Below are positions 34,794-61,436 of a stretch of DNA of 64,000 bases, one piece after another (within the stretch, counting starts at the first letter, position 1; each line of letters opens with the position of its first letter). Both the position numbers and the translations under genes were made by a program. Under the pieces are notes generated by a model that was not told the origin of the DNA, ran no database searches, and was given only the letters and a program-made list of their open reading frames with translations. The DNA comes from a virus (lineage: Duplodnaviria; Caudoviricetes), in the IMG/VR virus record IMGVR_UViG_3300034062_006701, one strand, 5' to 3'.

Positions 34794-35219
34794 CTATACA
34801 GTATGATCGGGGTAGGTTGACCCACCCGGAAGACCTACATCATTATTAGTAAAATTCAGATCAACATCTGCTTTATATAGATAGTCCTTCTCAAGAAGGA
34901 GCTCCTTCTTAGCTTGATCGAGATCTTTATTAGTCGGGTATTGTTCCAAATGATCAAGAGACTTCTTAAGAAGATCTGAGATAACATCATTAACAGAGAT
35001 ATCCTTTTCACAAGAATCAGAAATAAGCATCTCGAGTACCTCTCTAGGCCATTCGGAGATCTCAATCTCCATCTTTACATAAGGACGAAGCTCGATTGAG
35101 CCATCATCATGATGTTTAACACTAAACTTAGTTCCAGGACCTGCTCCAATCTCCTGAAGTTCTTCTTCAGTGAACTGAATATAGGCATCGTTAGTTGGTT
35201 GTAGTACTTTCTTTGTCAT
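34794..35219 (-). CDS. AbrB/SpoVT-like DNA-binding protein
   Basis: YIQF.EE.L..IG..PG.KF.V...DDGSIEL.P resembles a swapped-hairpin fold. Confidence 0.5.
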   Translation of the reverse strand: MTKKVLQPTNDAYIQFTEEELQEIGAGPGTKFSVKHHDDGSIELRPYVKMEIEISEWPREVLEMLISDSCEKDISVNDVISDLLKKSLDHLEQYPTNKDLDQAKKELLLEKDYLYKADVDLNFTNNDVGLPGGSTYPDHTV

Positions 35220-35763
35220 AATTGTTTATAGAATTGTATATGATTTCAACAGCCTTATCAACTGTCAATTCGTTATAATAAGGACTTTTATATGGAAGCC
35301 AGACTTCTACATTTGCATCAGCTTCATAAGGAGAATCAATTCCTGACATATTTTCAACTACTCCATCTCTGAACATTCTATAAAGTCCTTTAGAATCTCT
35401 TTGTTCACAAATCTCAAGAGGGGTATCTACAAATACTTCAATAAAATTAGCATTTGAATAACTTGTAAGAATATGACGAGCTTGTTTTCTCATTTCTATA
35501 AGAGGGGAGATACTAGCAACAATGACAGCTTCTGTCTTTTGGCATTCAATCATATTCCTGACAGCATAGATCATTCTATTAACTGCCTTCCATCTTCCCT
35601 CTATATCAAAGCCAACAGGTGTCTTTGTATCAAGTCTTAGAGTGTCACCATCAGCAACACCTGATCTAATACCTTCTATTCTTAATTTAAAATTAAGAGC
35701 ATTAGCAATAGAAGTCTTACCAGCACCAGATAGACCTGTTAACCAAATTACTGTAGGTTTCAT
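35191..35763 (-). CDS. cysC: Adenylyl-sulfate (APS) kinase
   Basis: VIWLTGLSGAGKTSIA, DGDTLR, ISP....R..AR, EVFVDTPLEICEQRD.KGLY, G.DSPYE. Confidence 0.92.
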   Translation of the reverse strand: MKPTVIWLTGLSGAGKTSIANALNFKLRIEGIRSGVADGDTLRLDTKTPVGFDIEGRWKAVNRMIYAVRNMIECQKTEAVIVASISPLIEMRKQARHILTSYSNANFIEVFVDTPLEICEQRDSKGLYRMFRDGVVENMSGIDSPYEADANVEVWLPYKSPYYNELTVDKAVEIIYNSINNYDKESTTTN

Positions 35764-36116
35764 ACAGTCTTCTCTCTACCAAGCCACCTCTTATCCCATT
35801 CAGCTTGAGGTGTATATTCCTGAATAGTCTCCCAAAGAGAATCAATAGTGTGACAGATTTCTACCTTCTTCTTACCAACTGTCTTATAAGCTTTGTTAGG
35901 CTTTCCCTTCCCAGTTAGAGATGGTCTTTCATAAAGATACCAATCAATCCATCCAATCTGCTCATCATTGAAATGAGACTTCAAAAGGAGATCAACCATC
36001 CTTTCATAAGGTTCAGTGTAACTTAACAGATCAATACCAAGATCATAAGTCTTTCGACCCTTTTCATGCATTAGCTGAAGCTTTAAGATAATTTCTTCAA
36101 AGAGTTCTTTTGTCAT
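35760..36116 (-). CDS. Hypothetical early protein
   Basis: TTGATA-17-TAGAAT-6-ATG. Confidence 0.65.
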   Translation of the reverse strand: MTKELFEEIILKLQLMHEKGRKTYDLGIDLLSYTEPYERMVDLLLKSHFNDEQIGWIDWYLYERPSLTGKGKPNKAYKTVGKKKVEICHTIDSLWETIQEYTPQAEWDKRWLGREKTV

Positions 36117-36147
36117 AATCTTATTCTATATACTTTAGGAGGAGGTA

Positions 36148-36372
36148 TCAAGGATCTTCTTTATATGCTACACAATTGATTCTGGAGTTAAGATCAGAGA
36201 TAAGACTAGCAGAAATTCTAGAGCCATCCTGAAGAGTTACACCTAGCCACCAATGACCATTATCCATTCTTTCTAGATGAAAGAACTGAACATCTTCTGC
36301 AATAATCTCATCAAGATTGCCTTCACTATTATATCGAAATTCCCATTCAGGTTTCATATTACCAATTATCAA
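36148..36372 (-). CDS. Hypothetical protein
   Basis: FHLERMD.GHWW.G motif. Confidence 0.55.
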   Translation of the reverse strand: MIIGNMKPEWEFRYNSEGNLDEIIAEDVQFFHLERMDNGHWWLGVTLQDGSRISASLISDLNSRINCVAYKEDP

Positions 36373-36607
36373 AGTCTAGACCTCTTTGTGTCATGATCTC
36401 CCAGAACTCTTTTCTAGCTTCTTCGAGAGCATCATAATAATCATCAGACTTTCCTTTATTGTCTCCAGTGTCTTCTGGATACTTGATCTTGTCTCTTAGG
36501 TATTGATCCATGTCCCAGGCAACCAAATACCAGCTAGTGGCATTGGATGCAAGTTTGAAGTCTGATTGTTCCTCTGGTAGATTAAAAGTTAATGTTCCTG
36601 TGGGCAT
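36359..36607 (-). CDS. Hypothetical phage protein
   Basis: L.FNLPEEQ.DF..A; TTGACA..TATAAT-6-ATG. Confidence 0.65.
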   Translation of the reverse strand: MPTGTLTFNLPEEQSDFKLASNATSWYLVAWDMDQYLRDKIKYPEDTGDNKGKSDDYYDALEEARKEFWEIMTQRGLDFDNW

Positions 36608-36637
36608 ATTCTTATTATATATCTTTATGATGGAGTG

Positions 36638-38122
36638 TCAAGAATTATTTTTCACATTGTGCCAAGGCCACTTACCATTCTTCATAAAGTAATCATAATT
36701 CGGATCCCTGTTTGCTTTCACTACTTTAAGTTCTTCTATCATTCTTTCAAGCTTTGCTACTTTCAGAGCTAAATCAGATGCTGCTTCTTCCCATGACTTC
36801 TCATCCTTTGATTCCTTACATTTATTACAAGGACACTTCCAAGGCTTTTCAAAATAATCTAAAACATCCTTACCTTCATCAAATCTCTCTTCAAGATTCT
36901 CAGCTGTTGTTTTATCATCTTCCCAATCATTAGGAACACCCTCATCAGCCATCCAATCAATTGTTTCGCCTTGGAACTCATTAGGAAATGACTTTGGTAA
37001 ATCATTTAGAGTATCTGCATACTCAGTAACTCTCTTCAAAAGCTCTTCAGCATTAAACTCTACCTCTTTTACAGGCTGTTCAAAGTCACTTGGATCATAA
37101 TCCTCAAATCCCTGGGTCTTCATATTCTTAAGTTCTTCAACAGCTTCTTTTACTTGTTCTCCTTCTAAAGGATCTTCATTGCTAAATTCAGACTCAACAA
37201 AATCAATGATATTTTTATTGTACTTTTCCTCGAATGCCTTATCTCTCTGCTCATTCAACCAATCAGAATAATGCTTCGGATAAGCTGATGCTGCACCATC
37301 ATAACCACCCCAATGGAGAGGGTACATAGGATGCTTTTGAGATTCCTTTTTTAGCTTTTCAACTTCTGCTTTTAACTCATCCCTCTCTTTAAGAAATCTC
37401 AAACAGGCATTTGCTACAACAACACCATGATTTTTTAACTCAGCATGGTTAATGATATATTCACGAACACCATTCCACTGATTTCGCTGATAAACATTAC
37501 TCTCCTTAAGTTTATCAATTTCTTTCTGCAACTTATTCATATCATCATAGCTAAAGCTTTGGGCATACTTGTCTTGATAATCTCTCAATTTACTCTTCAG
37601 TGCTTCAATCTCTTTATTAGCAGCATTAAGTTGGTGCTTATATTCATCCCTCTCTTCAGCACACTTCTTATAGTCATTCTGAATAATTTGAGTCTTAGCC
37701 TCATTAAAGGTTATACCATAGCTCTTCCCTTCTTTCTGAAGCAGTCTTTCAATCAACTCAACATTCTCAGTAATCTTCTTTACATACTTCTCATTAACTC
37801 TTTGAAGAGAATCTTTTAATTGCTTTTGATCTTCAATATCTTTTTTAAGCTTTGCATTCTCCTGTCTAAGCTCTACAGCAGCATTGTGCTCCTTAGTCCC
37901 ATCTTCTTCAATGGACTTGAGAAGAGCTTTATTGTTTTCATTCTCAGTCCAAAGTTCTTTATAAAGCTTTATAAATTCATCTGCTGTATATACTTTATCA
38001 TCAACAGTAAAAGTTGGTGTAGTTGTATAGGACCAAAAAGGCCAAGGTTGCTTACTCACAAGCTCTTCAGGTGTTGTAGAGTCACCAGCACTACCAAATT
38101 TTGGGAATAGATTAAAATTCAT
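36638..38122 (-). CDS. Long coiled-coil protein
   Basis: Heptad-rich, 494 aa; shares a QWN...Y...A...LKERDELK module with 57788..58063. Confidence 0.7.
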   Translation of the reverse strand: MNFNLFPKFGSAGDSTTPEELVSKQPWPFWSYTTTPTFTVDDKVYTADEFIKLYKELWTENENNKALLKSIEEDGTKEHNAAVELRQENAKLKKDIEDQKQLKDSLQRVNEKYVKKITENVELIERLLQKEGKSYGITFNEAKTQIIQNDYKKCAEERDEYKHQLNAANKEIEALKSKLRDYQDKYAQSFSYDDMNKLQKEIDKLKESNVYQRNQWNGVREYIINHAELKNHGVVVANACLRFLKERDELKAEVEKLKKESQKHPMYPLHWGGYDGAASAYPKHYSDWLNEQRDKAFEEKYNKNIIDFVESEFSNEDPLEGEQVKEAVEELKNMKTQGFEDYDPSDFEQPVKEVEFNAEELLKRVTEYADTLNDLPKSFPNEFQGETIDWMADEGVPNDWEDDKTTAENLEERFDEGKDVLDYFEKPWKCPCNKCKESKDEKSWEEAASDLALKVAKLERMIEELKVVKANRDPNYDYFMKNGKWPWHNVKNNS

Positions 38123-38159
38123 TGTTTATATTATGATTCGAATAATCAAGATGTCAAGA

Positions 38160-38429
38160 TTAAAATCCAAACATTAATGCAGTTTGTGTGATAATAGGTT
38201 GGTTACCTCCATGAAACTTAAAGTCTCTACTAATAATTCCACCTAACTGACAATCTCTCTTCTTGGACACTCTAAGATGATACTTGGATTGTAACCTGTT
38301 AATATCTTCTATAAGATCTCTACTATCATGATATGAGCCAATATAGTCTATTACTTTAAATTCTCGTTCTTCATAAGCTCTCAATGTCATTGTAAAGAGC
38401 AACAGTATTAGAGCTGTAGTTTTGTACAT
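38160..38429 (-). CDS. Small protein with signal peptide
   Basis: MYKTTALILLLFTMTLRA N-terminus. Confidence 0.55.
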   Translation of the reverse strand: MYKTTALILLLFTMTLRAYEEREFKVIDYIGSYHDSRDLIEDINRLQSKYHLRVSKKRDCQLGGIISRDFKFHGGNQPIITQTALMFGF

Positions 38430-38472
38430 ATAATAAATATAAATGAAAGTTTAGAAAAATCAATAAGTATCA

Positions 38473-39150
38473 GTGATGACTGATAATATACTTGTAATCT
38501 CAGATGTTCATTTAGGCTCACCTGTCTCAAGGGTTAAGTCATTAGCCAAAGTTTTAAAGAGTGAAAAGTATGATCATTTGATTATAAATGGAGATTTATT
38601 TGACTCATCAGCCATACACAGATATAAAAAGCATCACTGGAAGATTCTAGCTCTCATTAGAAAGATAGCTAAGAAGAAAGAAGTCACCCTCATTAAAGGA
38701 AATCATGATATCAATTCAACATTCCTTATTAAAGTTCTTGGTTTAGAGTTTATTGACAAGTATGAATTGACACTTAATAATAAAAAGTTCTTATTCATTC
38801 ACTTCCATCAATTCGATTCATTCATAAAGAAGTACCCAATTGTAACTCATATTGCTGAAAGCATTTACTATTTCTTTCAGAGTATTGATAGATCAAAGAA
38901 GTTCTCTAGATGGTTAAAAAGAACATCTAAAGTATTCCTAAATGTAAAAGTAAAGATTAGGAATAAGGCTTTAGATTATATTAAAGACAAAGACTATGAT
39001 GCCATTGTTGGAGGACATATTCACTTTGCTGAAAGCTTTAAGTGTTCAGAATCAGGAAAAGAATATTACAACTCAGGATCTTTTTGTGACGAACCTTGTC
39101 ACTATCTTTTAATTGACAAAGAAGCTAATGTTACTTTGAAAGAGATTTAA
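38473..39150 (+). CDS. Metallophosphoesterase, LpxH (UDP-2,3-diacylglucosamine hydrolase)-like
   Basis: ISDVHLGS, INGDLFD, GNHD, IHFHQFD, GGHIH, YYNSGSF. Confidence 0.85.
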   Translation: MMTDNILVISDVHLGSPVSRVKSLAKVLKSEKYDHLIINGDLFDSSAIHRYKKHHWKILALIRKIAKKKEVTLIKGNHDINSTFLIKVLGLEFIDKYELTLNNKKFLFIHFHQFDSFIKKYPIVTHIAESIYYFFQSIDRSKKFSRWLKRTSKVFLNVKVKIRNKALDYIKDKDYDAIVGGHIHFAESFKCSESGKEYYNSGSFCDEPCHYLLIDKEANVTLKEI

Positions 39151-39459
39151 TTACCAACCACCATAATACCTATTTTTAATAGCTCTTAATTTAGCATGCA
39201 ATTGCTTGAGAATTTTATCATGTGCTACTCTACCTTGAGGGTCTACTGTTTCAAAATAATCTTCTCTTCGCTTATCTGATTCAATCTGTTTAATTTTCTC
39301 TTTAAGTTCTTTTGATTGTGCTAATAGTTTAGCAGCTTCCTCATCTGTTATATTAGGGTTTCTCAATGAGAGTGTCTGACTATTTCCCATAATACTCTCA
39401 ACTAATTTATCAAATTTCATATAATATTATTTATCTATGTTACTTTGAAAGAGATTTAA
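39129..39459. repeat. 22-bp direct repeat flanking the 39151 gene cassette
   Basis: tgttactttgaaagagatttaa at 39129-39150 and 39438-39459. Confidence 0.9.
39151..39420 (-). CDS. Late MKFDKLVE-family protein
   Basis: TAAATA upstream; 5' end identical to the next gene. Confidence 0.7.
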   Translation of the reverse strand: MKFDKLVESIMGNSQTLSLRNPNITDEEAAKLLAQSKELKEKIKQIESDKRREDYFETVDPQGRVAHDKILKQLHAKLRAIKNRYYGGW

Positions 39460-39924
39460 AGAGCTTGTTCTAGGTTTGATCTAAAGAGCTTATTAAATTC
39501 AATCATTGGTGTCCATTCAGGGTTCAATGAATAAATTTGATACACTTGAAAGGAATCAGGTACTTTTAAATTAATTTTTACTGTACCTTTATCATGATAA
39601 TTTGTAAAGTCATTAGCATATTTGTTGAGAATAACTTCCTGTGCATTTTTAGCAGCTTGTATAGTTTTTTCCCTAATTTGTTGAATCTGTTCATCAGAAA
39701 GACCTAAACCTTTGAGTTCTTTGACAATAACCTGTGCATTATATCTAGGGGCACCAGTCTTTGGATCATAAGCAATGTGATCAAAAATCTTTTTACCAAT
39801 ACCTTTCAATCCTTTAGATGCTGGTCTGTCATAATCCCCAAAAACAGATTTAACAACATCTGATTTTTCAAAAGATTCCATAATACTCTCAACTAATTTA
39901 TCAAATTTCATATAATATTATTTA
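39387..39924. repeat. 47-bp identical repeat (late promoter plus MKFDKLVESIM codons)
   Basis: ccataatactctcaactaatttatcaaatttcatataatattattta at 39387-39433 and 39878-39924. Confidence 0.9.
39456..39911 (-). CDS. Late MKFDKLVE-family protein
   Basis: MKFDKLVESIMES; TAAATA upstream. Confidence 0.7.
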   Translation of the reverse strand: MKFDKLVESIMESFEKSDVVKSVFGDYDRPASKGLKGIGKKIFDHIAYDPKTGAPRYNAQVIVKELKGLGLSDEQIQQIREKTIQAAKNAQEVILNKYANDFTNYHDKGTVKINLKVPDSFQVYQIYSLNPEWTPMIEFNKLFRSNLEQAL

Positions 39925-39943
39925 ATCAATTTGTTTTTTTTAG

Positions 39944-40147: not shown

Positions 40148-40969
40148 TTAGTGTTGTCCACCTTCCCATGTACTACCACAAGGGCCACCACTCTCATTAA
40201 CATCGATCACAATATCTTCTCCTTCAGGTGTTATCAAGGGTATATAATGTCTGCTGATGCGCTGAGTGGATTTTGGAACATAATGGCAGATAAAGGATCT
40301 ACGAAATCTGTCTTTGGATCTATTTGGCCCTGAGCCATGAATTGAACTACCATTAAAGAATAATGTATCACCTGATTTCATAATACAAGGAACAGCCTTT
40401 TTTCCTTTTGGAGTTGGTACAAAATGGTTTGTGAATGACTCTGCTGCATTGGCTTCTTTTGGACATATAATTTCCTCTTCTGCTGTATCTGCTACAAGAT
40501 ACATTCCACCATTCTCTGGATCTGCATCATCGATAGCAGTCCATGCTGCAACACATGTTTGTGGTTCAACTAAAAGATAGAAATTATCTTGATGCATTGC
40601 CTGTCCTCTAGAGCCTGGTGGTTTGTAGTAAAACATGCTTTGAGCAGCAAGTACATCTTCTTGCATAAGCTCTTTCAAGCAAAAAAGAACAGCTGGATGG
40701 ACAAGATTTTTGCGTGATACAGAGTCATAACGATGTGGTTGCAGCACTCTCGGAAATTCTTTTAAAGGGTCTCCATTTGATTCATCTTTAGAGACAGGGT
40801 AAAAATAATCTTCAATAGTACCACTCTTTGCAATTCGATCAAAGGTATTTTTAATTTCTTCAACTTCAGCTTCAGAAAAGAGACCTCTTGCTACAGCATA
40901 ACCATGTTGCTTAAAGGAGGCTTTCATCTCTTCAAGGTTAACAGATTCAGGGAGTGTATATGTACTCAT
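40148..40969 (-). CDS. Phytanoyl-CoA dioxygenase (PhyH) family 2OG-Fe(II) oxygenase
   Basis: F...GY.V.RGLFS..EV, KPPG..GQAMHQDNFY (HxD), W.A.DDA..ENG, G..LFF.G..IHGS.PN.S..R.R. Confidence 0.9.
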   Translation of the reverse strand: MSTYTLPESVNLEEMKASFKQHGYAVARGLFSEAEVEEIKNTFDRIAKSGTIEDYFYPVSKDESNGDPLKEFPRVLQPHRYDSVSRKNLVHPAVLFCLKELMQEDVLAAQSMFYYKPPGSRGQAMHQDNFYLLVEPQTCVAAWTAIDDADPENGGMYLVADTAEEEIICPKEANAAESFTNHFVPTPKGKKAVPCIMKSGDTLFFNGSSIHGSGPNRSKDRFRRSFICHYVPKSTQRISRHYIPLITPEGEDIVIDVNESGGPCGSTWEGGQH

Positions 40970-40977
40970 ATTATTAT

Positions 40978-43277: not shown

Positions 43278-43952
43278 TCAATCCTCAATATCAGGCTTGT
43301 GATGATCAAATGTAACCTCATCATAATTTCTAAACTTAGCTCTTAGCTCAGCAAATGAAATAGGCTCAGGACAAATCTCCACACCTACATCCATTGTCTT
43401 TGCCTTATAGAGGATCTTTCCAAGCTCAGACTTATAGAGATTACCATGGGAATGACTATGAAGCTGCCAAGCTCCTTTATGCTGACCATTCCAAGTAGCC
43501 TGGGCATAATGATTCAGAACAATTGGCTGACCATTGATTACAATCTCTAGATAATTTGGAACAAAGTGAACCTTCTTATACTCAGTTGCTCCTGGTAGGA
43601 GAACATTATCCTGAACACTATCAAATAGCTGCTTATACCCTGCCTGATGATTACCAGGAAGAACATAAAGCTCTTTGAAGTCTAGTCTCCTAAAAAGACT
43701 TAGAAGCCTCTCATCAGCATTATGACCAAAGATTGTATCACCTAGAAGGAATCCAATAGTACTAGCATTAGCCTTCTTATTCCAATTCTGGATTAGACCC
43801 TCATCATGAAGCTCAACACTACTATAACCTCTGGACTTCCAAAGAGGTGTCTCCCATCTCTCACACTTGTGTCCTATGTGAAGACATCCCTGGAAAAGGA
43901 AATCATGATCCTTTCCAGAGAACTTTAGAGACTTATAAAAGAGATCCTTCAT
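43278..43952 (-). CDS. Calcineurin-like phosphoesterase
   Basis: CLHIGH, LLGD, PGNH, LNHY, LHSHSHG, MDVGV. Confidence 0.85.
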   Translation of the reverse strand: MKDLFYKSLKFSGKDHDFLFQGCLHIGHKCERWETPLWKSRGYSSVELHDEGLIQNWNKKANASTIGFLLGDTIFGHNADERLLSLFRRLDFKELYVLPGNHQAGYKQLFDSVQDNVLLPGATEYKKVHFVPNYLEIVINGQPIVLNHYAQATWNGQHKGAWQLHSHSHGNLYKSELGKILYKAKTMDVGVEICPEPISFAELRAKFRNYDEVTFDHHKPDIED

Positions 43953-43990: not shown

Positions 43991-44527
43991 TTAAATTCTA
44001 CCTAGTACATCTTCTACTGGAATAATGTATCCAATAGTATGAGGTTTAGTGCAATCATCTCCCTTAATAGTCAATGTTGCCATCTCTGTGTTAATGCTTT
44101 TAACTTCACCACCTAGAGTTGAGCTATATACACTCTTCTTAAAGTGTACTCTCTGCCCTACTTCATAGGGAACAGTTACATTATAATCTTTAACCCATTT
44201 CTCTACAGCCTTACCAGTAGCTTTATGAACAATTGCCCAAACACCATCTAATGTATCAACTAAATCTGAATCAGCATCCCAACTCCATCGATCATCACAA
44301 AATCTTGCTAACTTATAGCCATCATAGTCACTATTATCAACAATCTCCTCAGCACACCATAGAGCTTCCTTATCATCAATTCCACCATCACTCTTCCAAT
44401 AATCTTTAAGCAATTCAGCCACCTTTACAGCTGCTACTTCCTGTACTTCTTTGCTCCATTTATCTGGTCTCTTTGGAACAGCAATATCTACATTAAAGCC
44501 TAATTCTGTTGTTTCTGTTGTAGTCAT
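43991..44527 (-). CDS. Hypothetical phage protein
   Basis: ORF track 43991..44551; likely start MTTTET. Confidence 0.6.
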   Translation of the reverse strand: MTTTETTELGFNVDIAVPKRPDKWSKEVQEVAAVKVAELLKDYWKSDGGIDDKEALWCAEEIVDNSDYDGYKLARFCDDRWSWDADSDLVDTLDGVWAIVHKATGKAVEKWVKDYNVTVPYEVGQRVHFKKSVYSSTLGGEVKSINTEMATLTIKGDDCTKPHTIGYIIPVEDVLGRI

Positions 44528-44709
44528 ATTATTCTGTTTCTGTAGAATCACAAAGATTAAACCACTTTGTATATGTATCAGGACATATTACATTACCATA
44601 CTCAAGAGCATTAATAACAATATACCAAGATTCCTCCTCTCCAACTGCTTTAGCTATAGTTTTTATTGCATTTACAATTTGTTGATCCTCAGCATTCATT
44701 TTTTTTGGT

Positions 44710-44937
44710 CTACCTAGAAATTATTACAGCTTCACAATCTGCTTTTACTGTATCAGATATTCTATGAAGTTCATGTCTCCCATAATACCATTCATTTTCA
44801 TCAGTATGAACATTTAGCTTCATAGGTGTTTGAAAAGGCAATTGAGGTGTGTCATAACCCCCCTCGTAGCCATCCACAAATACAGGCAGTTCTGGATCAA
44901 ACTTCTGTAGCATTTCAATTAGTTGTTGTACCTTCAT
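44710..44937 (-). CDS. Hypothetical small phage protein
   Basis: MKV.QLIE.L..FDP.LPV.VDGYEGG.D motif. Confidence 0.65.
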   Translation of the reverse strand: MKVQQLIEMLQKFDPELPVFVDGYEGGYDTPQLPFQTPMKLNVHTDENEWYYGRHELHRISDTVKADCEAVIISR

Positions 44938-44940
44938 AAA

Positions 44941-45312
44941 TTAAATTCTCCAAGTTGTTCTTCCACCATGAGGGCCACATGTCTCACAATAACCATCACT
45001 TGATTCATAATCATCAGATTGGAAGCATTCTACAAGATCTTTAAAGGAACAAGTACCATCCTTGATTCCTTCTTTGAGTTTCAAAAGAAGATAATCTAAA
45101 AGCTCATCATCTTCTTCAGGTTGTTTAACACCTTCCTCTACTTCTCCACTCCTCCATACACCATTGATACTAAACCCCCAATTGTAACAAGAAGCTTCAT
45201 CATATACAATTGTATACTTTGGTTCATCCTCTTCTAAAGGCTTATCCAAATCAATCTCAACACCTTTAGTTAATTCTTTTGCTTTTTCTAAAACTTCTTT
45301 AAGGTCTTTCAT
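44941..45312 (-). CDS. Hypothetical acidic protein
   Basis: C-terminal CETCG. Confidence 0.6.
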   Translation of the reverse strand: MKDLKEVLEKAKELTKGVEIDLDKPLEEDEPKYTIVYDEASCYNWGFSINGVWRSGEVEEGVKQPEEDDELLDYLLLKLKEGIKDGTCSFKDLVECFQSDDYESSDGYCETCGPHGGRTTWRI

Positions 45313-49006: not shown

Positions 49007-50548
49007 TTAGAGATTATCGTTGATTCTGTTGCGAATGTCAACAAGATTCTGATCGATTAGAAGTTCTCCATCTTCAAACACTGGAAGAAGTTCAGAATCT
49101 GTTCCTGCTTCTACCTCATCATAGAGATGATACTGTCCATCAATTGGGTCTATTACAACAGTTAAGAATCCCTTTGCACTATTCTTCATACCATCATCAG
49201 TCTTAGGTTTCTTGAAGATCTCCTTGACCTCTCCGTTGACAATACCAGCAGTTGCCTTAACAGCAAAGCCAAGAGTATCACGAGTCTGATACTGATAGGT
49301 ATACGAACCAATACCAAAGACGATATTGTTGGAAGCAAATCCCTTGTTCTTCAAACGAGTAAGGATTTCATTTGCACGATCAAGTGTAATAGAATCACCA
49401 TAGATCAGCCCAATGTGCGAATCCAAAGACTTGAATCCCTTATCGGTTACAGTACCACCGAAGGTCTCCCATAGAACTTCTACAGCACCATTGATTTCAT
49501 TAAGATCAAGAATCTTATCAGTACCAACTTCCTTAAAGTATCCGTTATCAAGATATACTTCGTCTTCAGTGTAACCTGCAACGATCTTAACAGGATCTCC
49601 AGAGTCAGGACGAATGACAACCTTGCCATCACGAGCCATGATCTCAGCCTTCAGACTAGGAAGAATTTTGGTAAGAACTCCCCAAAAATCAAAGCTATCA
49701 GAGACAATAGAAACAATACCATTAGGATAAAGTTCGGTAATAAGACGCTTAAAGCTATCATACTCATCAGGCTCTCCCTCACCAAACTTGGCATTAAGAG
49801 TCATGACGCTATGCTCTGTAGCTGGAACAGAACAACCAACAAGCTCCTTGTCAGCATTAGCATTGTAGTAGTCTTCGAGGAAGTCGATAGCAGGAACAGT
49901 ATCGGTTCCTACAAAGCTAGTCAAGTGACCTGCACCTGTCATAGCCGCATCCTCTGCTCCACTCATACCACGGAAGCTGAAGTCATGTCCTTGGAATCCA
50001 ACAAAGGATGGATCAACTCCTGTTTCTTCTGCAAAGTTAAGAAGGAGCTTCTTATACTTTCGAGCAAGTGTAGCACTTGTGCAAGGCTTCCAAATAGTAG
50101 CTGAGAGAATAGTCTCAAGGAAGTTAGTAAGCCAGAAGAAATCAGGCAATGTATTCTCAATAGTAAATACTGGAATCTTGGCATCAACAGCAGCACCTTC
50201 AGGAAGAGCCTTGATAAGGATTGGTAGATAACCAAGATCATGCAGGGCTTCAATATGCGAAACATCAGCATCACCACCGAGGGAAGTATCGAGCCTTCTC
50301 TTGTAATAGGAAACAACCTCATTCTTTGGCTTACTAAAAAATTCCGTATTGAACTTCTCAATCAGAAAATCCTTGATAAAGTATTGAAGACCAAAGAATA
50401 CTACCTTATCATCGGTTCCTTCAATCTTAGGAAGATACTTCACCGAACGAGGAGTAAGATTGGAATAGACAAGAGTAGTACCTTCTGGATACATCTTATG
50501 ATGCTGGGTCTTGTAAAAATCGAGCTGCATTAATGGGCGTGTTTTCAT
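49007..50548 (-). CDS. Nicotinamide phosphoribosyltransferase-like protein (NadV/Nampt fold; Namat candidate)
   Basis: DFYK..H..MYP, FFGLQYFI, LTN.LET, HDFSFRG, GTDT.PA, SVPATEHSVM, VSDS.D, IRPDSGDP, IYGDSIT, FG.GS..Q...RDT.GFA.KAT, KS.KG. Confidence 0.95.
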   Translation of the reverse strand: MKTRPLMQLDFYKTQHHKMYPEGTTLVYSNLTPRSVKYLPKIEGTDDKVVFFGLQYFIKDFLIEKFNTEFFSKPKNEVVSYYKRRLDTSLGGDADVSHIEALHDLGYLPILIKALPEGAAVDAKIPVFTIENTLPDFFWLTNFLETILSATIWKPCTSATLARKYKKLLLNFAEETGVDPSFVGFQGHDFSFRGMSGAEDAAMTGAGHLTSFVGTDTVPAIDFLEDYYNANADKELVGCSVPATEHSVMTLNAKFGEGEPDEYDSFKRLITELYPNGIVSIVSDSFDFWGVLTKILPSLKAEIMARDGKVVIRPDSGDPVKIVAGYTEDEVYLDNGYFKEVGTDKILDLNEINGAVEVLWETFGGTVTDKGFKSLDSHIGLIYGDSITLDRANEILTRLKNKGFASNNIVFGIGSYTYQYQTRDTLGFAVKATAGIVNGEVKEIFKKPKTDDGMKNSAKGFLTVVIDPIDGQYHLYDEVEAGTDSELLPVFEDGELLIDQNLVDIRNRINDNL

Positions 50549-50608
50549 TGCTTATATATTCTATACAATTTAATAGGAAGTGTCAAGCTTTATTATGGCA
50601 TTCCAGTT

Positions 50609-50800
50609 CTAAATGGATCTTTTATAAGGCTTCTTAATCATTGCTTGGTTATAAACAACTTTTGCTTTATAAATCATACTAGGTGTTATAAAAAAAGAAG
50701 ACAGCCCTCCTAAACATTCCCAACCTTCTTCAAGTTTTTCATTAACAGCCTTTTCTAAATCTTCGATTGTGTTTCTTTCAACAATAATATATTTCATATT
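50609..50800 (-). CDS. Small DUF1737-like protein (start MKYIIV)
   Basis: L...VN..L.EGW...GG..........YNQAM pattern. Confidence 0.6.
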   Translation of the reverse strand, partial: NMKYIIVERNTIEDLEKAVNEKLEEGWECLGGLSSFFITPSMIYKAKVVYNQAMIKKPYKRSI

Positions 50801-51053
50801 ACCAATCTCCGCTTGCTCCACCGCCACCAGAATCTCCACCTCCACCAGAGAAGGAATCATAGGACGAATCATATGAAGAACTGGAACTGCTGTCATCAGA
50901 ACTCATAAGCTCTGAGATAATCATACCAGCAGCAAGTCCAGTAATAATATCATCGCTATCATCAGTAGTAGAACGATTACGATTAATTGATTCGCTTCTT
51001 GGTGCGACTTTCTTTTTGTTGTTTATTGGTTTTTTTGGTACGTTGTATCCCAT
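50799..51053 (-). CDS. Small protein with Ser/Gly-rich tail
   Basis: SSSSSYDSSYDSFSGGGGDSGGGGASGDW terminus. Confidence 0.65.
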   Translation of the reverse strand: MGYNVPKKPINNKKKVAPRSESINRNRSTTDDSDDIITGLAAGMIISELMSSDDSSSSSSYDSSYDSFSGGGGDSGGGGASGDW

Positions 51054-51057
51054 ATGT

Positions 51058-51888
51058 TTAGATTTGTATAGTGTTTAGTTTAATGTTTTCCTGATTGTTT
51101 GTAAAGGAGTTTGTGCATCCCAATGTATCAAACCTTTCCAAAAGGATGTTAACTCCTTTAGAATAGATGCCATGAGTTGTCCAAAGATGTATATTATATT
51201 GTAAAGGATAAGCTTTACGAATAGCATCTGCTACTCCAAGGAATGTTCCTCCTCCATCACAAATATCATCAACAATAACAAGATCAGTAACACCTTCCTT
51301 GATAAGTCTTTCCTTGGAAACAGAAAAGTCACTATCAACAAAGAATCCCATAAGAGATCCATCAATAGGACTTCTAGTTTTTCCACATTGGATTGCCTTA
51401 TCGACACCAAGAGCACTACAATATCTTTGGGTCTTTTCATGTGCCCCCTTATCGGGTGCAATTAAGACAACTTTATCCAGTGTTATTATTCCAATTTTAT
51501 GAAGATACTTTTCAATATACTTTGCTGGAGATACAGATTCAAGATGAATACCTGCTTGTTTGAATATTTCAATACTAGCATGTGAGTGCAAATCAATGGT
51601 TTTTACATGGGTAATACCAGCGGCAGAAATAAGACTAGCAAGTACGGCAATAGCAAGAGGATCACCATGCGTTGCAATACGATCTTGTCTGGCATAAGGA
51701 AGATAAGGGATTGTAATAGATGTAATATCATTATCTGTATCATATTCATAGGCATTAATAGCCATGAACATTCCAATGAGGTCATCCGAGCTTTGAATCC
51801 TAAAGACAGTATCAAATGCTTCAGGGTTCTCTACACGAACTCCGACTTCACCACCAGAGTATTTCCATGTCTTGTATGCTTGTTTCAT
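51058..51888 (-). CDS. Ribose-phosphate pyrophosphokinase-like protein (Prs fold; Adps candidate)
   Basis: YSGGE..V, IPYLPYARQDR, D.HS, L.APDKGA, K.R, IVDDICDGGGTF, THGI.S.G. Confidence 0.92.
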   Translation of the reverse strand: MKQAYKTWKYSGGEVGVRVENPEAFDTVFRIQSSDDLIGMFMAINAYEYDTDNDITSITIPYLPYARQDRIATHGDPLAIAVLASLISAAGITHVKTIDLHSHASIEIFKQAGIHLESVSPAKYIEKYLHKIGIITLDKVVLIAPDKGAHEKTQRYCSALGVDKAIQCGKTRSPIDGSLMGFFVDSDFSVSKERLIKEGVTDLVIVDDICDGGGTFLGVADAIRKAYPLQYNIHLWTTHGIYSKGVNILLERFDTLGCTNSFTNNQENIKLNTIQI

Positions 51889-54561: not shown

Positions 54562-54579
54562 TTTTATATTCTATATGCT

Positions 54580-54828
54580 TTAGGAGGAGGTGTCAAATGA
54601 ATAATCTCTTTTGTTCCAAATAATCTCAAACAAAAGCCTCTTCCATCTGATTCCAAACTTTGAATAAGATGAGCAATTAAAAGTAGACAACCTGGGAAAC
54701 CTTGATTTATAAAGTTCAGCAGGGGTATCTGGAATACTCCAAAGACTAATAGTAATCTTATTGTTCAGCAGGTTAAAGCAGAAGTATTTCTTTGCTGGTA
54801 TAGCTGTGTTTGGTATAAAAATGCTCAT
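54580..54828 (-). CDS. Hypothetical protein; paralog of 42561..42833 (start MSIFIP)
   Basis: Shared PAK.YFC..FNCSSY..LFEI.WNK. Confidence 0.62.
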   Translation of the reverse strand: MSIFIPNTAIPAKKYFCFNLLNNKITISLWSIPDTPAELYKSRFPRLSTFNCSSYSKFGIRWKRLLFEIIWNKRDYSFDTSS

Positions 54829-54829
54829 A

Positions 54830-55593: not shown

Positions 55594-56496
55594 GTGGAAA
55601 TAACACCTAGGAGCATAAGTACTTATGCAATGAATAACACTACTCAACAACTATCTATTGTAATAACCAGCTGTTCATGTTGTAATAAGGAATTTTCCTT
55701 TTATCCACCTTCTCGAAATAGAAAATACTGTTCAAGAAAATGCTCTAGAGTACATCATGCTAGCAAATTGCCTTCGTTATTGATTACCATCAATTGTAAA
55801 ATTTGTAACAAGGAGTTCAAATCACATTCAAAGAAAAAAAGAAAATACTGTTCGAGGGAGTGTTATACCAAAAGCATGGTTAAACCTGGAACTGCAGAAA
55901 GAAAGATACAGTATAGACTTGAACATAGAGAACAACATAGAATATACAGCAGGGAACATTATTTAAAGAATAAAGAAAAGAGAAAGAAACAAGATCAAGA
56001 AAGAAGGAAGGACCCAGAGCATAAAAAAAGAAGAGCTGAGTATATGGCAAACAGGTATAAGAATCCTATTAACAGAGAAAAGAGAAAAGCATACTATAAA
56101 GTTTATAATAAGAAAAATAAAGAGCATAATCTTAAATTAACAAGAGCTAGATATTACAAATACATTAAAGATCCTAAGCAGAAACTAAAGTTTAAATTAA
56201 GAAATAGGTTGTATATTGCTCTAAAAGCTAAAAATGCTGAAAAGCAATTAAGTGCTATAGCTCTTATTGGATGCTCTATAGAAGAGCTTAAAAAGCATAT
56301 AGAATCTCAATGGCTAGAAGGAATGACATGGGAGAATCATACTGTAAATGGTTGGCATATAGATCATATAATGCCATGTAATACATTTGACCTAACCAAT
56401 ATCGAAGAACAGAAGAAGTGCTTTCATTACACTAATCTAAGACCTCTTTGGGGACCTGATAATATCTCTAGGCCTCATGATGGCAGTGATCTTTAG
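55594..56496 (+). CDS. Free-standing HNH homing endonuclease with N-terminal Zn motifs; paralog of 24573..25268
   Basis: C..CNKEF......RKYCSR.C twice; GWHIDHIMPCNTFDL...CFHYTNLRPLW..DN.SRP.DGSDL. Confidence 0.9.
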   Translation: MEITPRSISTYAMNNTTQQLSIVITSCSCCNKEFSFYPPSRNRKYCSRKCSRVHHASKLPSLLITINCKICNKEFKSHSKKKRKYCSRECYTKSMVKPGTAERKIQYRLEHREQHRIYSREHYLKNKEKRKKQDQERRKDPEHKKRRAEYMANRYKNPINREKRKAYYKVYNKKNKEHNLKLTRARYYKYIKDPKQKLKFKLRNRLYIALKAKNAEKQLSAIALIGCSIEELKKHIESQWLEGMTWENHTVNGWHIDHIMPCNTFDLTNIEEQKKCFHYTNLRPLWGPDNISRPHDGSDL

Positions 56497-56512
56497 GACA
56501 CTTCAAGCCTTA

Positions 56513-56851
56513 TTAGCTTTCACCTAAAGTATTCTTCAATCTAAGAACAAAATCCTTTATGTTTAACATCTGATAATCATCATAAGTCATATAGCTGTCT
56601 CCAAATTCATCAACTCTAATAACAGCTAAAATATGCTTTTTACCATTTGTTGTTACAAATTCTTCAATTACAAATTCCTCATCATTAATCTCGAAAGAAT
56701 ATTCTACAGAGTGTTTAATAGCTCCTTTTGTATAATTTTTATCATTCTTCTCATACTTTACCCCATTCCTATCAAGTAAAGATAATACCATCTGTACAAT
56801 ATTGCCTTCAACATTCTCCATAATATTTTCAACCAGTTTATCGAATTTCAT
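56513..56851 (-). CDS. Late MKFDKLVE-family protein
   Basis: MKFDKLVENIMEN; TAAATA upstream. Confidence 0.7.
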   Translation of the reverse strand: MKFDKLVENIMENVEGNIVQMVLSLLDRNGVKYEKNDKNYTKGAIKHSVEYSFEINDEEFVIEEFVTTNGKKHILAVIRVDEFGDSYMTYDDYQMLNIKDFVLRLKNTLGES

Positions 56852-56876
56852 ATTATTATTTAATATATATTAACTC

Positions 56877-57158: not shown

Positions 57159-57192
57159 TATGCTTTTATAATATAGAAATTTTTAGGACTTT

Positions 57193-57498: not shown

Positions 57499-57499
57499 A

Positions 57500-57766: not shown

Positions 57767-57787
57767 GTCTTTATACTATAGGAATTT

Positions 57788-58063: not shown

Positions 58064-58455
58064 TGTTTAAAAACCTCAATATCCTTGTTAAACCTTACAA
58101 ATGCTTCAAGGTAATTTGTCAACCTTTCTCTTAACTGCTTATTAATATCCCTTAGGTCATTAATCTCCCTCTCATCCTCTTGAGTTTTGACCCACAGAGC
58201 ATCTCTCTCCAGCTTTACTTCTTCTAGCTCTTCAGCAGCATCCCTCAACTGATTGATTTCCCTCTCGTCCTCTTGAGTTTTGACCCACAGAGCATCTCTT
58301 TCTAGTTTAAGCTCTTCTAGCTTCTTTGTAAGATATTTTTCAAGGTCCCATGCTTTATGTTCCAGCATATCTCTTTCGAGCTTAACTGTCTCAAGCTTTT
58401 CTTCGAGCCATACAAACCTAGACTCTGGGTCATTATGATTATAAGGACAATTCAT
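58060..58455 (-). CDS. Coiled-coil protein with internal 31-aa duplication
   Basis: LEE.KLERDALWVKTQEDEREIN occurs twice. Confidence 0.7.
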   Translation of the reverse strand: MNCPYNHNDPESRFVWLEEKLETVKLERDMLEHKAWDLEKYLTKKLEELKLERDALWVKTQEDEREINQLRDAAEELEEVKLERDALWVKTQEDEREINDLRDINKQLRERLTNYLEAFVRFNKDIEVFKQ

Positions 58456-58456
58456 A

Positions 58457-58714
58457 TTAAAAAGGTGGTTGGTTGTTTTTGTACTTCATTCTCCAGTACC
58501 AATAAGGAAATGGTGTACTATACCAAAGACTAATCCACATCCTCCTAAAGCTCTTATGCCATCTCTCTTCTTTAGCAAAATGCATTCCACACTCAGTATG
58601 CCAACAGGCAAGATGGTGTAAAGCCTTCTTGGGATCTTTTGCCCACTCTTCTGTATAGATACCAGTAGTCATCAGCTCTTCAATAATTGCCTCTTTCCAG
58701 ATGTTCTTAGCCAT
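58457..58714 (-). CDS. Hypothetical Trp-rich protein
   Basis: 85-aa ORF. Confidence 0.55.
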   Translation of the reverse strand: MAKNIWKEAIIEELMTTGIYTEEWAKDPKKALHHLACWHTECGMHFAKEERWHKSFRRMWISLWYSTPFPYWYWRMKYKNNQPPF

Positions 58715-58726
58715 ATATAAAGGAGT

Positions 58727-59119
58727 TTACTTCTTCCTATTAGCTTCAAGGATAGGAAGGTTAGCTTCTGTAGGAATATAGATTACCTGATTCTTTGTGT
58801 TCTCTAGATTATTAACAAAGAGGTAGCGAAGATATTCCTCATTGTTCTTCAGAGACTCACCAATGATCTTGTTAGCCTCTGCAACTCCCCTCGCCCTTTC
58901 AATCTCTGCCTTTGCTAGCAAAGATGCACTCTCCATCTTAGCCTTTGCCTCAGCTACAGCTACCTCTCGAGAGGATTGAGCATGTGCAAGGATTGCCTCT
59001 CCTTCCATCTTCTTTGAATATACATCATACTTTAGACATCCCCACATTCCAAGGGTAATAACTCCAATGAAGAGAATTGCTACAAGTGTTGTTACTGATA
59101 CTGCTGTTGTTGTTTTCAT
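58727..59119 (-). CDS. Membrane protein, SPFH/band-7-like coiled coil
   Basis: N-terminal transmembrane segment; AEAKAK..A...AEIERARGVAEAN.II..SL...YLRY; IYIPTEANLPILEA. Confidence 0.72.
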   Translation of the reverse strand: MKTTTAVSVTTLVAILFIGVITLGMWGCLKYDVYSKKMEGEAILAHAQSSREVAVAEAKAKMESASLLAKAEIERARGVAEANKIIGESLKNNEEYLRYLFVNNLENTKNQVIYIPTEANLPILEANRKK

Positions 59120-59142
59120 ATTTTTATAGTCTATAGAGATTT

Positions 59143-59493
59143 TTAGGACACTTCAAGCTTTTTCTTATCATAGAGTTCAGCATACTCTTGGACAAAGTAG
59201 AATTCAAGCACAACTGCAACAGCTGTCCAAATCCATCCAAACCAAATTAGAGTACAAAAGAATCCAACTGTCACTGGAATTGAAACCCAAAGTGATGTAC
59301 TTGGTCTTGACATTTTTACACTCTCAATCTTTTTAATCGAATTAAGAGCATATACATTAAAAGAAATAATCCATACCCCCAGCCAATTAAATCCAACATA
59401 GATGTATTGTGCTGTCTTATTACCTTCAATGCCCTTCCAAAGAAGAAGAGCTAAAAAGAAATTAAAAAGTAGATAACTAATATTTTTATTCAT
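59143..59493 (-). CDS. Multi-pass membrane protein
   Basis: Three to four hydrophobic segments; own promoter. Confidence 0.65.
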   Translation of the reverse strand: MNKNISYLLFNFFLALLLWKGIEGNKTAQYIYVGFNWLGVWIISFNVYALNSIKKIESVKMSRPSTSLWVSIPVTVGFFCTLIWFGWIWTAVAVVLEFYFVQEYAELYDKKKLEVS

Positions 59494-59532
59494 ATTTTTA
59501 TATACTATAGGGATTCTTAGGACACTTCAAGT

Positions 59533-59955
59533 TTAAACTTTGATTTTATCCATTCTATCTGCAACAACATTATTTGTTCCTGAGAATCCATGATCAACAA
59601 GTAAACAGGGAATATCATTCATTATACAAGCTGTACAGACTTCTACCTGGTCATCAACCATCAAAGTACAATTGAGCTTCTTTAGAATAGGAATCTTTGA
59701 TCTTCCTGATGTACTATGAATACCCTTAATAGGTAGATTGTGCTTCTTTACAAACTCTTCTACTTCTGGGATATCTTCTTCCTTTCTAAAGGTTACAATA
59801 TGACAATCAAATCCTTCTTCATCCTTCTCTAGGACCATATCAATAATCTTTTGAATAGGCTTTAGAACACCTGTACCTACAGCAATCCATCCTCCTGACA
59901 CTTCTTCAATGGCTAAAGTATAGTCGAAGTCAAATGCTATAACTGGCCTGTTCAT
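59533..59955 (-). CDS. HAD-superfamily hydrolase
   Basis: IAFDFDYTL (DxDxT), IVTFR, K..IL, MVDD. Confidence 0.8.
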   Translation of the reverse strand: MNRPVIAFDFDYTLAIEEVSGGWIAVGTGVLKPIQKIIDMVLEKDEEGFDCHIVTFRKEEDIPEVEEFVKKHNLPIKGIHSTSGRSKIPILKKLNCTLMVDDQVEVCTACIMNDIPCLLVDHGFSGTNNVVADRMDKIKV

Positions 59956-59992
59956 CTGCTTATAATAGAGATCCTTAAATGACTAGTCAAGC

Positions 59993-60352
59993 TTATTCGC
60001 CATTACCTAAAAGCTTTTTAAAGAGATTATAACATGAGATATAATAATCACACATTATAGGGTCTCTTGAATCCATAGCATTATTGTACTCCAGAGTATT
60101 CTCTTTGATATCTTCTTCTAAGCTCTTCTTAAAATCTGGATTCAGTTTAGATTGAATAAGATCTAAAATAGGCTCCATGTCTTTATCAGACAAATGCAAA
60201 TTAATTTCAGATCCATCATATTTTGATCCATAGTTAAAATTCATCTTAACTTCTACAGGAGGATGCTTAAACCTAGTATCAAAAGGCTCACCTGAAAAAT
60301 CTGAGAAGTAAATTGCTTCCTCGATCTGTTTTGGCTTTAGTATCTTCTTCAT
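59993..60352 (-). CDS. Hypothetical protein
   Basis: 119-aa ORF. Confidence 0.6.
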   Translation of the reverse strand: MKKILKPKQIEEAIYFSDFSGEPFDTRFKHPPVEVKMNFNYGSKYDGSEINLHLSDKDMEPILDLIQSKLNPDFKKSLEEDIKENTLEYNNAMDSRDPIMCDYYISCYNLFKKLLGNGE

Positions 60353-60546
60353 AAAATTTTTAATACTTTAATAAGACCAACCTCATCACCTATTTCATTA
60401 GAATGTAAAATTAAATTAGGAGATCCATCTTCACATACTTTCTTTTCTAAAATGTCTTTGTAGAACCATATAATCTCATCCGAATTATTCTCATGCATAA
60501 TATAATCATCATAAGTTAATTCTACTTCCATTCTAATAGTTTTCAC
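60349..60546 (-). CDS. Hypothetical small protein
   Basis: Operon packing. Confidence 0.5.
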   Translation of the reverse strand: MKTIRMEVELTYDDYIMHENNSDEIIWFYKDILEKKVCEDGSPNLILHSNEIGDEVGLIKVLKIL

Positions 60547-61436
60547 GATTTGTTTAGTTTGTTATAGACATCATCATATGCTCCAAGATTATAGAGATAT
60601 TTCTTCTTTTGTTCTTCCTTATTCTTCTTCTCTTGTTCAACGAACTTTCTTTCTGATTCTTTATAAAAGCTCTCAAGTCCTGTGTCAATGATATTATATG
60701 TACCATCTTCTAGGATTTCAAGCACCTGAGACAACCCACAATCAATATCAATACAAAGACCTTTGTTTGCAGTCTCTTCAACATCGATTGATTTTACAGG
60801 AGTATGCCCAGAAACTTGCTTAATACCAGACTCATCATTCCAATAAGAACCAGTATAGGATTCCCTTATAGCATCTCGCCAGATCAATCCTCCCACACGA
60901 TGAATACCACCTCTACACCTTCCAGCAGCACCAAGCTCATTGCTGAACTCTCTATCCTCGATAGCTTTTTGAATTTTCTTAAGCTTTATCTCAATGATCT
61001 CATCATCCATCCCATAAGGAGGGCTAGAGAACCAAAAAGGATGGAACCCAGCATGAGAGAACCAAAAGCCATTCTGCTTATGGGCAAGCCTAACCCTATT
61101 CCAATCCTCATTAGACATGATCCTATTAATAGCATCATCCTTAGCTGGTGAATAACCTGAGCAATTATAGATCTGATCTCCAAGACTAGAACCAGGTCTT
61201 AGGTTAAAGCTCGCATAATTTATGTCATGGTTGCCCATTAAGTGAACTCGATTAGACTTAGATAAAGACTCTTTAAGCCAACGAGCTGTTTGTTCAGCCT
61301 CTATAGCAGAATCACCAAAGTCGTCGTAGTAGTCGCCAGTGAACACAATAGTATGTGTTGCATCGTATTTTGATGCAATAGCCTCAGCCTCAACCCAGTG
61401 GTTGTGCACGTCACCCACGCATAGTAATTTAGCCAT
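60543..61436 (-). CDS. Metallophosphoesterase (Ser/Thr phosphatase-like)
   Basis: VGDVHN, TGDYYD, MGNHD, FSHAG, QVSGHTP, IDIDC. Confidence 0.85.
   Translation of the reverse strand: MAKLLCVGDVHNHWVEAEAIASKYDATHTIVFTGDYYDDFGDSAIEAEQTARWLKESLSKSNRVHLMGNHDINYASFNLRPGSSLGDQIYNCSGYSPAKDDAINRIMSNEDWNRVRLAHKQNGFWFSHAGFHPFWFSSPPYGMDDEIIEIKLKKIQKAIEDREFSNELGAAGRCRGGIHRVGGLIWRDAIRESYTGSYWNDESGIKQVSGHTPVKSIDVEETANKGLCIDIDCGLSQVLEILEDGTYNIIDTGLESFYKESERKFVEQEKKNKEEQKKKYLYNLGAYDDVYNKLNKS

Follow-up and report, generated by a model that had tools for sequence, protein, structure and literature searches.

Selection against CG is suggested by a locally purged cassette array in a T4-like lake phage

Genes and promoters of the array

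The stretch analyzed here (the window; 64,000 nucleotides of record IMGVR_UViG_3300034062_006701) derives from the 221-kb genome of an uncultured T4-like lake myophage whose host is probably a member of the Terrimicrobiaceae (Verrucomicrobia). No cultured relative was found, its capsid protein being about 32% identical to those of cyanophages, and no DNA match was found for the gene block that is the subject of this work (Table 1). The block is made up of small genes, and sigma70-type promoters recur before them (repeat families D3 and D5 included), with a site at 16 of 60 genes compared with 0.6 after shuffling. These promoters lie 4–8 nt before the ATG. Stem-loop terminators were not in excess in the 52–62.5 kb region scanned (2 found, 4.6 expected). 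Joints between promoter copies were seen, and are fitted by repeat mis-mapping as well as by excised mini-circles.

Three metallophosphoesterases are encoded. The best PDB match of the Namat-like gene product was Namat (9W5X/9W5W, E = 1e-162), followed by human Nampt at 1e-64; this predicted gene adjoins a PRPS-like gene, as in NARP1 (Adps plus Namat). The PhyH gene has 8 CG, while the host copies have about 70–80.

Table 1. Features of the CG-purged block, its edges and a control region (VCGB, [ACG]CG[CGT])
Feature	Position	Strand	Remarks
Control region: CG-normal early cassette array, other promoter family	22147–29928	-	
Conserved 141-aa gene, immediately beyond the left edge	34794–35219	-	CG 0.5–1.1 in relatives, nearly normal
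CG-purged block, about 60 mostly minus-strand small genes	35191–61210		VCGB-free zone about 34830–62170
Adenylylsulfate kinase (CysC-like), conserved left boundary gene	35191–35763	-	CG 0.1–0.55 in patch-bearing relatives, 0.8 when outside the patch
494-aa protein, conserved patch gene, no identity assigned	36638–38122	-	About 33% identity to relatives
Metallophosphoesterase	38473–39150	+	Also CG-purged (2 CG)
Host-like PhyH dioxygenase	40148–40969	-	80% identical to Terrimicrobiaceae copies
Conserved phosphoesterase, phrog_547	43278–43952	-	Predicted fold like PDB 1XM7
Partly purged island, Namat-like and PRPS/Adps-like genes (NARP1-like)	49007–51888	-	VCGB 0.27, TCGA 0.78
Block promoter copy	54568–54596	-	TTGACA, 17 nt, TAGAAT, ATG about 6 nt on
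HNH-type endonuclease	55594–56496	+	
Conserved 119-aa gene, within the right edge	59993–60352	-	
Metallophosphoesterase, array head, graded right boundary gene	60543–61436	-	CG 0.2–0.8 in relatives

Extent and sequence context of the CG depletion

A sequence-only reading had described a CG-depleted block of about 26 kb. Computation confirmed it, with a CG observed/expected ratio (o/e) of 0.17 at 35.2–61.1 kb compared with 0.85 at 1–35199, and the hand counts behind it were correct (2 CG in 44041–45000, 14 in 15481–16020). The 127 CG between 35200 and 61100 compare with a mean of 732 and a minimum of 677 in base shuffles; GpC is normal (1.02). If the block proteins are recoded using codon frequencies from elsewhere in the window, 578–768 CG are predicted; 63 are seen. 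GC content and amino-acid usage, the explanation that the reading had itself set against the depletion, were ruled out by the shuffles and the recoding. All codon positions are depleted: CGN makes up 8% of Arg codons in the block compared with 55%, and a G-starting codon is preceded by C in 2.8% of cases compared with 30%. Intergenic DNA in the block holds 9 CG (32 expected).

Maximum-likelihood edges were placed at 35280 and 61210 for CG and at 34830 and 62170 for VCGB, the left being sharp and the right gradual over about 1 kb. Because other assemblies of the phage span both the 35-kb and the 61-kb edge at 99.99–100% identity, an assembly chimera was rejected. Among relatives the edges shift by 0.5–1.6 kb, and no fixed physical edge within a gene was seen among those compared. 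Partial islands at the PhyH gene (o/e 0.26) and the Nampt/Prs genes (49.0–51.9 kb, 0.36–0.54) proved real. The description of 1–34 kb as CG-normal held overall, but not for 28–35 kb, which is mildly low (0.5–0.8), and the 22–29 kb array, called CG-rich, is merely CG-normal (0.8).

The loss is strand-symmetric and ranked by flanking context. VCGB was seen 6 times against 319 expected; ACGC, ACGG and CCGC stand at 0.00–0.01, as empty as the palindromes ACGT and CCGG, VCGA stands at 0.11, and TCGA is partly retained (0.44). On coding strands VCGA is at 0.32 and TCGB at 0.29, consistent with strand symmetry. CA/TG rises to about 1.15. The same ranking was found in the patches of relatives, whereas phages with mild genome-wide CG loss rank oppositely, with TCGA lowest. 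Avoidance of 4-base palindromic type II sites was excluded, since the three non-palindromes are empty and TCGA is spared. Identifying the avoided words thus left the proposed CG-directed restriction possible, although not in the form of a 4-base palindromic set.

Position, substitutions and exchange between phages

The CG content of a gene tracks that of its flanks (Spearman 0.64, n = 339) and is lower inside a patch for 12 of 16 gene families (p = 0.005). The phrog_547 gene has no CG in the block and its homologues in CG-normal DNA stand at 0.6–0.9, while the HNH gene is at 0.18 and its 73%-identical homologue in phage G004 at 0.80. Genes with a late TAAATA box have CG of 0.21 inside the block and 0.85 outside. 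Early expression was rejected as the cause, as the reading had anticipated, since these late-box block genes are purged and the early genes at 22–29 kb are not. Core patch genes at 58–75% amino-acid identity remain purged. CG-rich inserts with 20–55 CG survive within patches, and the cost per CG site is therefore small. A link to the 7-deazaguanine cluster was rejected on the distribution of QueF: patch-bearing G004, G012, G013 and G014 have no QueF match, and QueF-bearing G009 and G010 lack the signature.

Substitutions were drawn from 60 source pairs; the SNP pairs have ancestry in common and are only partly independent. Only isolated differences were counted, as mosaic alignments confound plain close-pair comparison. 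CG-creating synonymous differences numbered 0 of 319, compared with 30 of 962 in controls (p = 3e-4); a few of the CG-low pairs, accounting for 2 of 109 differences, come from phages that are CG-poor in general. In CG-normal DNA the ratio for CG-creating sites is 1.27. This suppression favors selection and disfavors the methyl-deamination pressure offered in the reading; its other suggestion, that the block is exposed differently to CG-directed pressure, agrees with both the substitutions and the dependence on position. The data suggest that the CG purge of the 26-kb array is the work of natural selection.

At least 11 further phage records, siphophages included, have a purged patch of this kind. 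Cassettes with up to 99% DNA identity are common to the window phage and a siphophage that has a tape measure and lacks a T4-like capsid, recent exchange being at 96–99%. The same boundary genes are found in many diverged relatives, and between them length (6–27 kb) and content differ through gene gain, loss and replacement. The edges had been proposed to mark a recombination join; exchange is real, but recurrence of the same boundary genes speaks against a one-off join. The complete patch-bearing genomes G033, G013 and G014 have one CG-poor locus each (weak in G035). Many accessory genes are common to patch-bearing phages and mostly missing from patch-less G009 and G010. The repeated promoter co-maps with patches, and the 400 nt downstream of it hold 94 CG (519 expected). 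A viral sequence search with a block gene and an exact-pattern search gave no match.

Candidate host DNA is 55–60% GC with CG o/e of about 1.1, ACGT alone being avoided. No C5 methylase (PF00145) was found in 8 phage records, 7 of them with a clear patch and the window's genome not among them. Among 12 incomplete host genomes, 7 encode such methylases, and the single one that was examined resembles Dcm/HhaI rather than M.MpeI. In four runs, three of which may be source samples, contig depth was raised 1.5–2.5-fold to the left of about 30 kb and did not change over the 35.2-kb edge; as depth per contig, this gives no copy number. It weakly hints that the CG-normal 22–30 kb array, whose left limit is not fixed, is the terminal repeat, and gives no support to the block in that role, so a T5-like first-entry model does not fit simply. 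The block lies upstream of the array in the window, G003, G034 and G033 and downstream in G036 and G015; early exposure of the block can therefore only be inferred.

Candidate causes and significance

The explanation that we favor, with modest confidence, is that a putative CG-directed DNA attack keeps a swappable region of early genes under selection. The block would be a hypervariable array of promoter-plus-gene cassettes, traded by recombination among myophages and siphophages of freshwater Verrucomicrobia; the sharing is observed, while host and route are deduced. On both strands, DNA resident in the array would be subject to weak, ongoing purifying selection that removes CG, as the substitution data support. 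The pattern resembles that of a three-base site, VCG/CGB, scored on each strand separately: TCGA would hold no site and be partly kept, VCGA and TCGB one site (about 0.14), and VCGB two overlapping sites (about 0.02). The likeliest agent would be a defence, carried by the host group that these phages have in common, that cuts or modifies DNA in a CG-directed way; a frequent nickase is one example, and two opposed nicks would give a double-strand break. The attack would reach the block soon after infection starts, at a time when counter-measures of the phage do not yet shield the remainder. Newcomers (HNH genes, the NARP1-like pair, the host PhyH gene) would arrive CG-rich and be purged in place, VCGB first.

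The same selection signature would be expected if the phage inflicted the damage itself: a CG-directed nuclease of its own would destroy the host chromosome, which is rich in CG, and its sites would have to be absent from the single-copy DNA that enters first after the repeat. The T5 pre-early metallophosphatase-like A1, which drives host DNA degradation (10.64898/2026.04.02.716235), is a precedent; the three metallophosphoesterases, the CG-rich candidate hosts and the location of the block inward of the probable repeat also fit. Nevertheless, no candidate nuclease is specific to patch-bearing phages, a shared small HNH being present in patch-less G009 as well. The model of the 43.3-kb phosphoesterase matches a small Aquifex enzyme, with Mre11 only at E > 0.02, and the 30–35 kb interval that separates repeat from block shows only mild depletion. 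This explanation is considered unlikely.

Import from an unsampled, genome-wide CG-poor phage lineage in which the cassettes mostly reside, with inflow outpacing amelioration, is decidedly unlikely. It would account for the recent exchange with a different phage family and for the co-mapping promoter, and boundary genes of intermediate CG content could have arisen as chimeras at crossovers. However, about 90 loci showed local patches only, with no genome-wide CG-poor donor bearing the block signature, so the CG-poor origin suggested in the reading was not borne out. Genome-wide CG-poor relatives have the opposite context ranking or none, diverged core patch genes are still purged, and the donor lineage would itself need a cause for its CG loss.

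Several intercalating drugs prefer CG steps. Transcription or transfer of a densely promoted segment might be hindered by a small molecule or DNA-binding protein with a preference for CG, an idea that fits the strand symmetry. Intercalators stop T5-like phages once first-step transfer is complete, although the paper states no sequence preference (PMC13250531). With no known producer for these lakes or hosts, and the 22–29 kb array equally promoter-dense yet CG-normal, such a structural cost is very unlikely. Local hypermutation, in which regional CG 5mC is lost to TG/CA by deamination, is highly improbable. The raised CA/TG and the prevalence of CG-to-CA/TG among CG differences between homologues are as it predicts, but transitions dominate CG differences in normal genes as well. 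The model predicts 7–24 CG-creating differences where 0–8 were seen (P < 1e-3), depletion is as deep at CGN Arg codons as at silent sites, and the methylase is absent from the 8 phage records noted above.

CmdTAC, a dinucleotide-specific toxin, has specificity for GA. Avoidance at the mRNA or codon level in early genes, through tRNA supply or an RNA-targeting toxin, has the depleted CGN codons and CmdTAC as an anti-phage mRNA precedent (10.1101/2024.02.24.581662) in its favor, but is extremely improbable: codon-junction, NCG and intergenic CG are lost too, reverse-complement symmetry of the flank effects largely refutes it, and late-box and plus-strand block genes are purged while the 22–29 kb early genes are not.

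The favored reading, selection by CG-directed attack on a swappable region, can be set beside three known systems. CG-specific methylases of Mollicutes, M.SssI and M.MpeI, cause CpG depletion that is genome-wide. As in the block, CG is strongly under-represented in a prokaryotic setting; here, however, the depletion is local, substitutions fit selection rather than deamination, candidate hosts are CG-rich, and no methylase of this kind (PMC5944983) was found in the 8 phage records, which do not include the window's genome. The hyperplastic (PeSL) regions of the T4-type phages RB49 and phi1, as far as described in the sections consulted (Arbiol et al. 2010, PMC2839356), likewise carry shuffled, small non-essential genes with repeated sigma70-like early promoters, with no CG purge noted there. 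The block differs in having no excess of terminator stem-loops, in its promoters close to the ATG, and in exchange that crosses the myophage and siphophage families. In T5 and BF23, DNA-directed defence threatens only part of the genome, the first-step-transfer region (PMC10644984). A long terminal repeat beside early genes is the probable layout here also, but the purged segment is apparently single-copy, the probable repeat is CG-normal, and a degenerate three-base CG context replaces specific 4–6 bp sites.

No earlier description of such a local CG purge, or of VCGB, was found in the open-access papers searched. Phages that avoid a motif usually do so throughout the genome, or else at named restriction sites in the DNA that is injected first; in the block the avoidance is local, near-complete and strand-symmetric, depends on position instead of gene family, and is common to phage families that probably infect a single host group. 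We tentatively suggest, as a possibility with the weight of doubt against it, an undescribed defence of freshwater Verrucomicrobia that reads VCG/CGB per strand, acts on no more than one positional domain of incoming phage DNA and does so with enough force to mould a cassette pool common to unrelated phage families. VCG/CGB with TCGA spared would be a precise specificity for a putative activity in abundant uncultured lake bacteria. CG content may serve as an arrival clock, new inserts being CG-rich and old ones purged. If such a defence exists, local dinucleotide purges would be readable footprints of undescribed defences.

Extent and context of the CG depletion

The block at 35200–61100 contains 127 CG sites, with an observed/expected ratio of 0.17 compared with 0.85 in 1–35199; GpC is normal across it. 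Base shuffles of the block gave no fewer than 677 CG, and recoding its proteins with the codon usage of the window's other parts predicted 578–768 CG, against 63 seen. The CpG depletion claimed by the sequence-only reading for this interval was thus borne out, and is a real, unusual feature. The same reading called the 22–29 kb array CG-rich, but it was found to be CG-normal. CG loss reached intergenic DNA as well as Arg and NCG codons and the junctions between codons. The CG edges lie at ~35.3 and ~61.2 kb, and those of the most avoided class, VCGB (V = A/C/G; B = C/G/T), are wider (~34.8 and ~62.2 kb). Other assemblies of the phage span both edges with nearly no differences.

With the Nampt island set aside, 6 VCGB sites were left versus 319 expected. 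ACGT, ACGG, ACGC, CCGG and CCGC stood at 0.00–0.01 of expected, ACGA/CCGA/GCGA at 0.11 and TCGA at 0.44. On the coding strands of 12 phages VCGA (0.32) and TCGB (0.29) were equally retained; this symmetry shows a rule at the level of duplex DNA and not of mRNA. Retention fell in approximately multiplicative steps (~0.5, 0.14, 0.02), and the avoidance would behave as a VCG/CGB site counted once per strand. The context order was reversed in relatives with mild genome-wide CG loss. A milder, different loss was observed in relative G009 at 167–185 kb (L124–L125) and in loci L019, L021, L042 and L043, with TCGA lowest, CCGG/GCGC retained and the capsid gene spared.

Gene layout and genome ends

The portal, capsid and tail genes of the window are T4-like, and no cultured close relative was found. 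Contigs of 221.6–221.7 kb encoding proteins identical to the window's have overlapping ends, so the assembly is circular. The phage DNA is present in lake metagenome runs. The block PhyH gene is 80% identical to Terrimicrobiaceae/Spartobacteria genome copies, which makes this group the putative host.

The block holds ~60 small genes, most on the minus strand; 16 have a sigma70-type promoter 4–8 nt upstream of the ATG (0.6 in shuffles). Across 22000–62000 Shine-Dalgarno-like motifs are scarce and early-type promoters lie 4–8 nt before the ATG, suggesting that early mRNAs there may be leaderless. Several unrelated small genes (39151–39911, 56513–56851, 30051–33014) share N-terminal motifs (MKFDKLVE.., MNKD.HL.FEA), two of them with an identical 47-nt start region. 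The QueF gene set is similar to the cluster for fdPreQ1 guanine replacement in phage immuto_2-6A (10.1101/2023.04.13.536721).

Features of the phage genome (window positions unless a locus is named)
Feature	Position	Remarks
QueF, AAA_28 kinase, DUF1599, formyltransferase, weak DUF6610 match	7884–11056	
tRNA-Tyr and tRNA-Met genes	21073–21154 and 25479–25555	
Second cassette array	22147–29928	~43% GC; 1.5–2.5-fold contig depth; own 63-nt promoter repeat
HNH gene	24489–25268	Adjoins tRNA-Met gene
Nampt-like gene beside PRPS/Adps-like gene	49007–51888	Best PDB match phage Namat 9W5X/9W5W
Small gene, histone H1-like Hc1 Pfam match	L188:1247–1441, past window end	Beside sulfotransferase and 1341-aa protein

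The second array, with 14 copies of its promoter repeat (2 more at 34.5–34.8 kb), is a probable long terminal repeat, carried here by a T4-like phage. In four runs, three of them possibly source samples, contig depth (a single figure per contig) was 1.5–2.5-fold greater left of ~30 kb, with no rise at the 35.2-kb edge. This hints weakly that the terminal repeat is the CG-normal array and that the block, a few kb further in, is single-copy DNA; the block itself does not appear to be the terminal repeat. At the depth step, 29130–30050 (~0.9 kb) lacks long ORFs, repeats AACCGGG words and switches from purine-rich to pyrimidine-rich. It is a candidate genome end or injection/packaging signal. In T5 and BF23, restriction is possible only via sites in first-step DNA (PMC10644984); applied to the block, that model requires extra assumptions. 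Its side relative to the other array differs between relatives.

Recurrence and position dependence

Patches with the block's signature recur in relatives G002, G004, G005, G012, G013, G014, G015, G016, G017, G019 and G033, one locus per complete patch-bearing genome. Most are bounded by the same genes, metallophosphoesterase and CysC, and are 6–27 kb long. G013 carries a tape-measure gene, and nothing in it matched the T4-like capsid, yet it has stretches in common with the window phage at 96–99% DNA identity, a cross-family exchange. The Nampt-like and PRPS/Adps-like genes, a predicted NARP1-like anti-defence pair, are missing from its matching block. In most further loci examined, CG-poor DNA lay at the repeated promoter.

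Depletion depends on position, not on gene family or expression class. Block-gene homologues with CG-poor flanks are themselves CG-poor, and those in other settings have near-normal CG (gene versus flank CG, Spearman 0.64); the 22–29 kb array is CG-normal although as promoter-rich as the block. Late TAAATA-box genes are purged in the block (0.21, versus 0.85 outside). The window's HNH gene is purged, while HNH inserts inside relatives' patches are still CG-normal. PhyH has ~70–80 CG in host copies and 8–15 in phage copies, and the Namat/PRPS island is half-way purged (VCGB 0.27, TCGA 0.78). We read these patterns as purging in place.

Possible causes

A phage-made nuclease degrading host DNA could impose CG avoidance, and of the alternatives this is the best placed, albeit unlikely. 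Slightly less probable is import of cassettes from an unseen donor. Among ~90 loci retrieved with four block features as queries, no genome-wide purge was seen, and CG loss was local wherever flanks were sufficiently long. A CG-binding molecule is improbable as the cause.

Deamination is marginally more doubtful still. Among isolated synonymous differences, CG-creating sites differed at 0/319 and controls at 30/962; in CG-normal DNA the ratio of the two was 1.27. A hypermutable-CG model fitted per context expected 7–24 differences where 0–8 were seen (P<1e-3, an optimistic value because compared pairs have common ancestry). A search of 8 phage records turned up no C5 methylase. Purifying selection against CG in the block is supported, and must be weak per site because CG-rich inserts persist in patches. 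Effects at the RNA level, to which the duplex rule is opposed, are the least credible cause.

The candidate hosts are CG-rich and avoid only ACGT, though strongly (0.39 after trinucleotide correction; L254–L280, L288), which rules out a simple CG restriction-methylation pair as the agent. Chlorella viruses encode frequently cutting nickases with degenerate three-base sites. The block behaves as a hyperplastic early-gene region would, with avoidance of sites on a regional scale added. Unlike the promoter and stem-loop (PeSL) cassettes of T4-type regions, its scanned part (52–62.5 kb) shows no excess of terminator-like stem-loops (2, versus 4.6 expected). Ahead of all the alternatives we place, with moderate confidence, a CG-directed attack on DNA by the shared host group, which would reach the block early.
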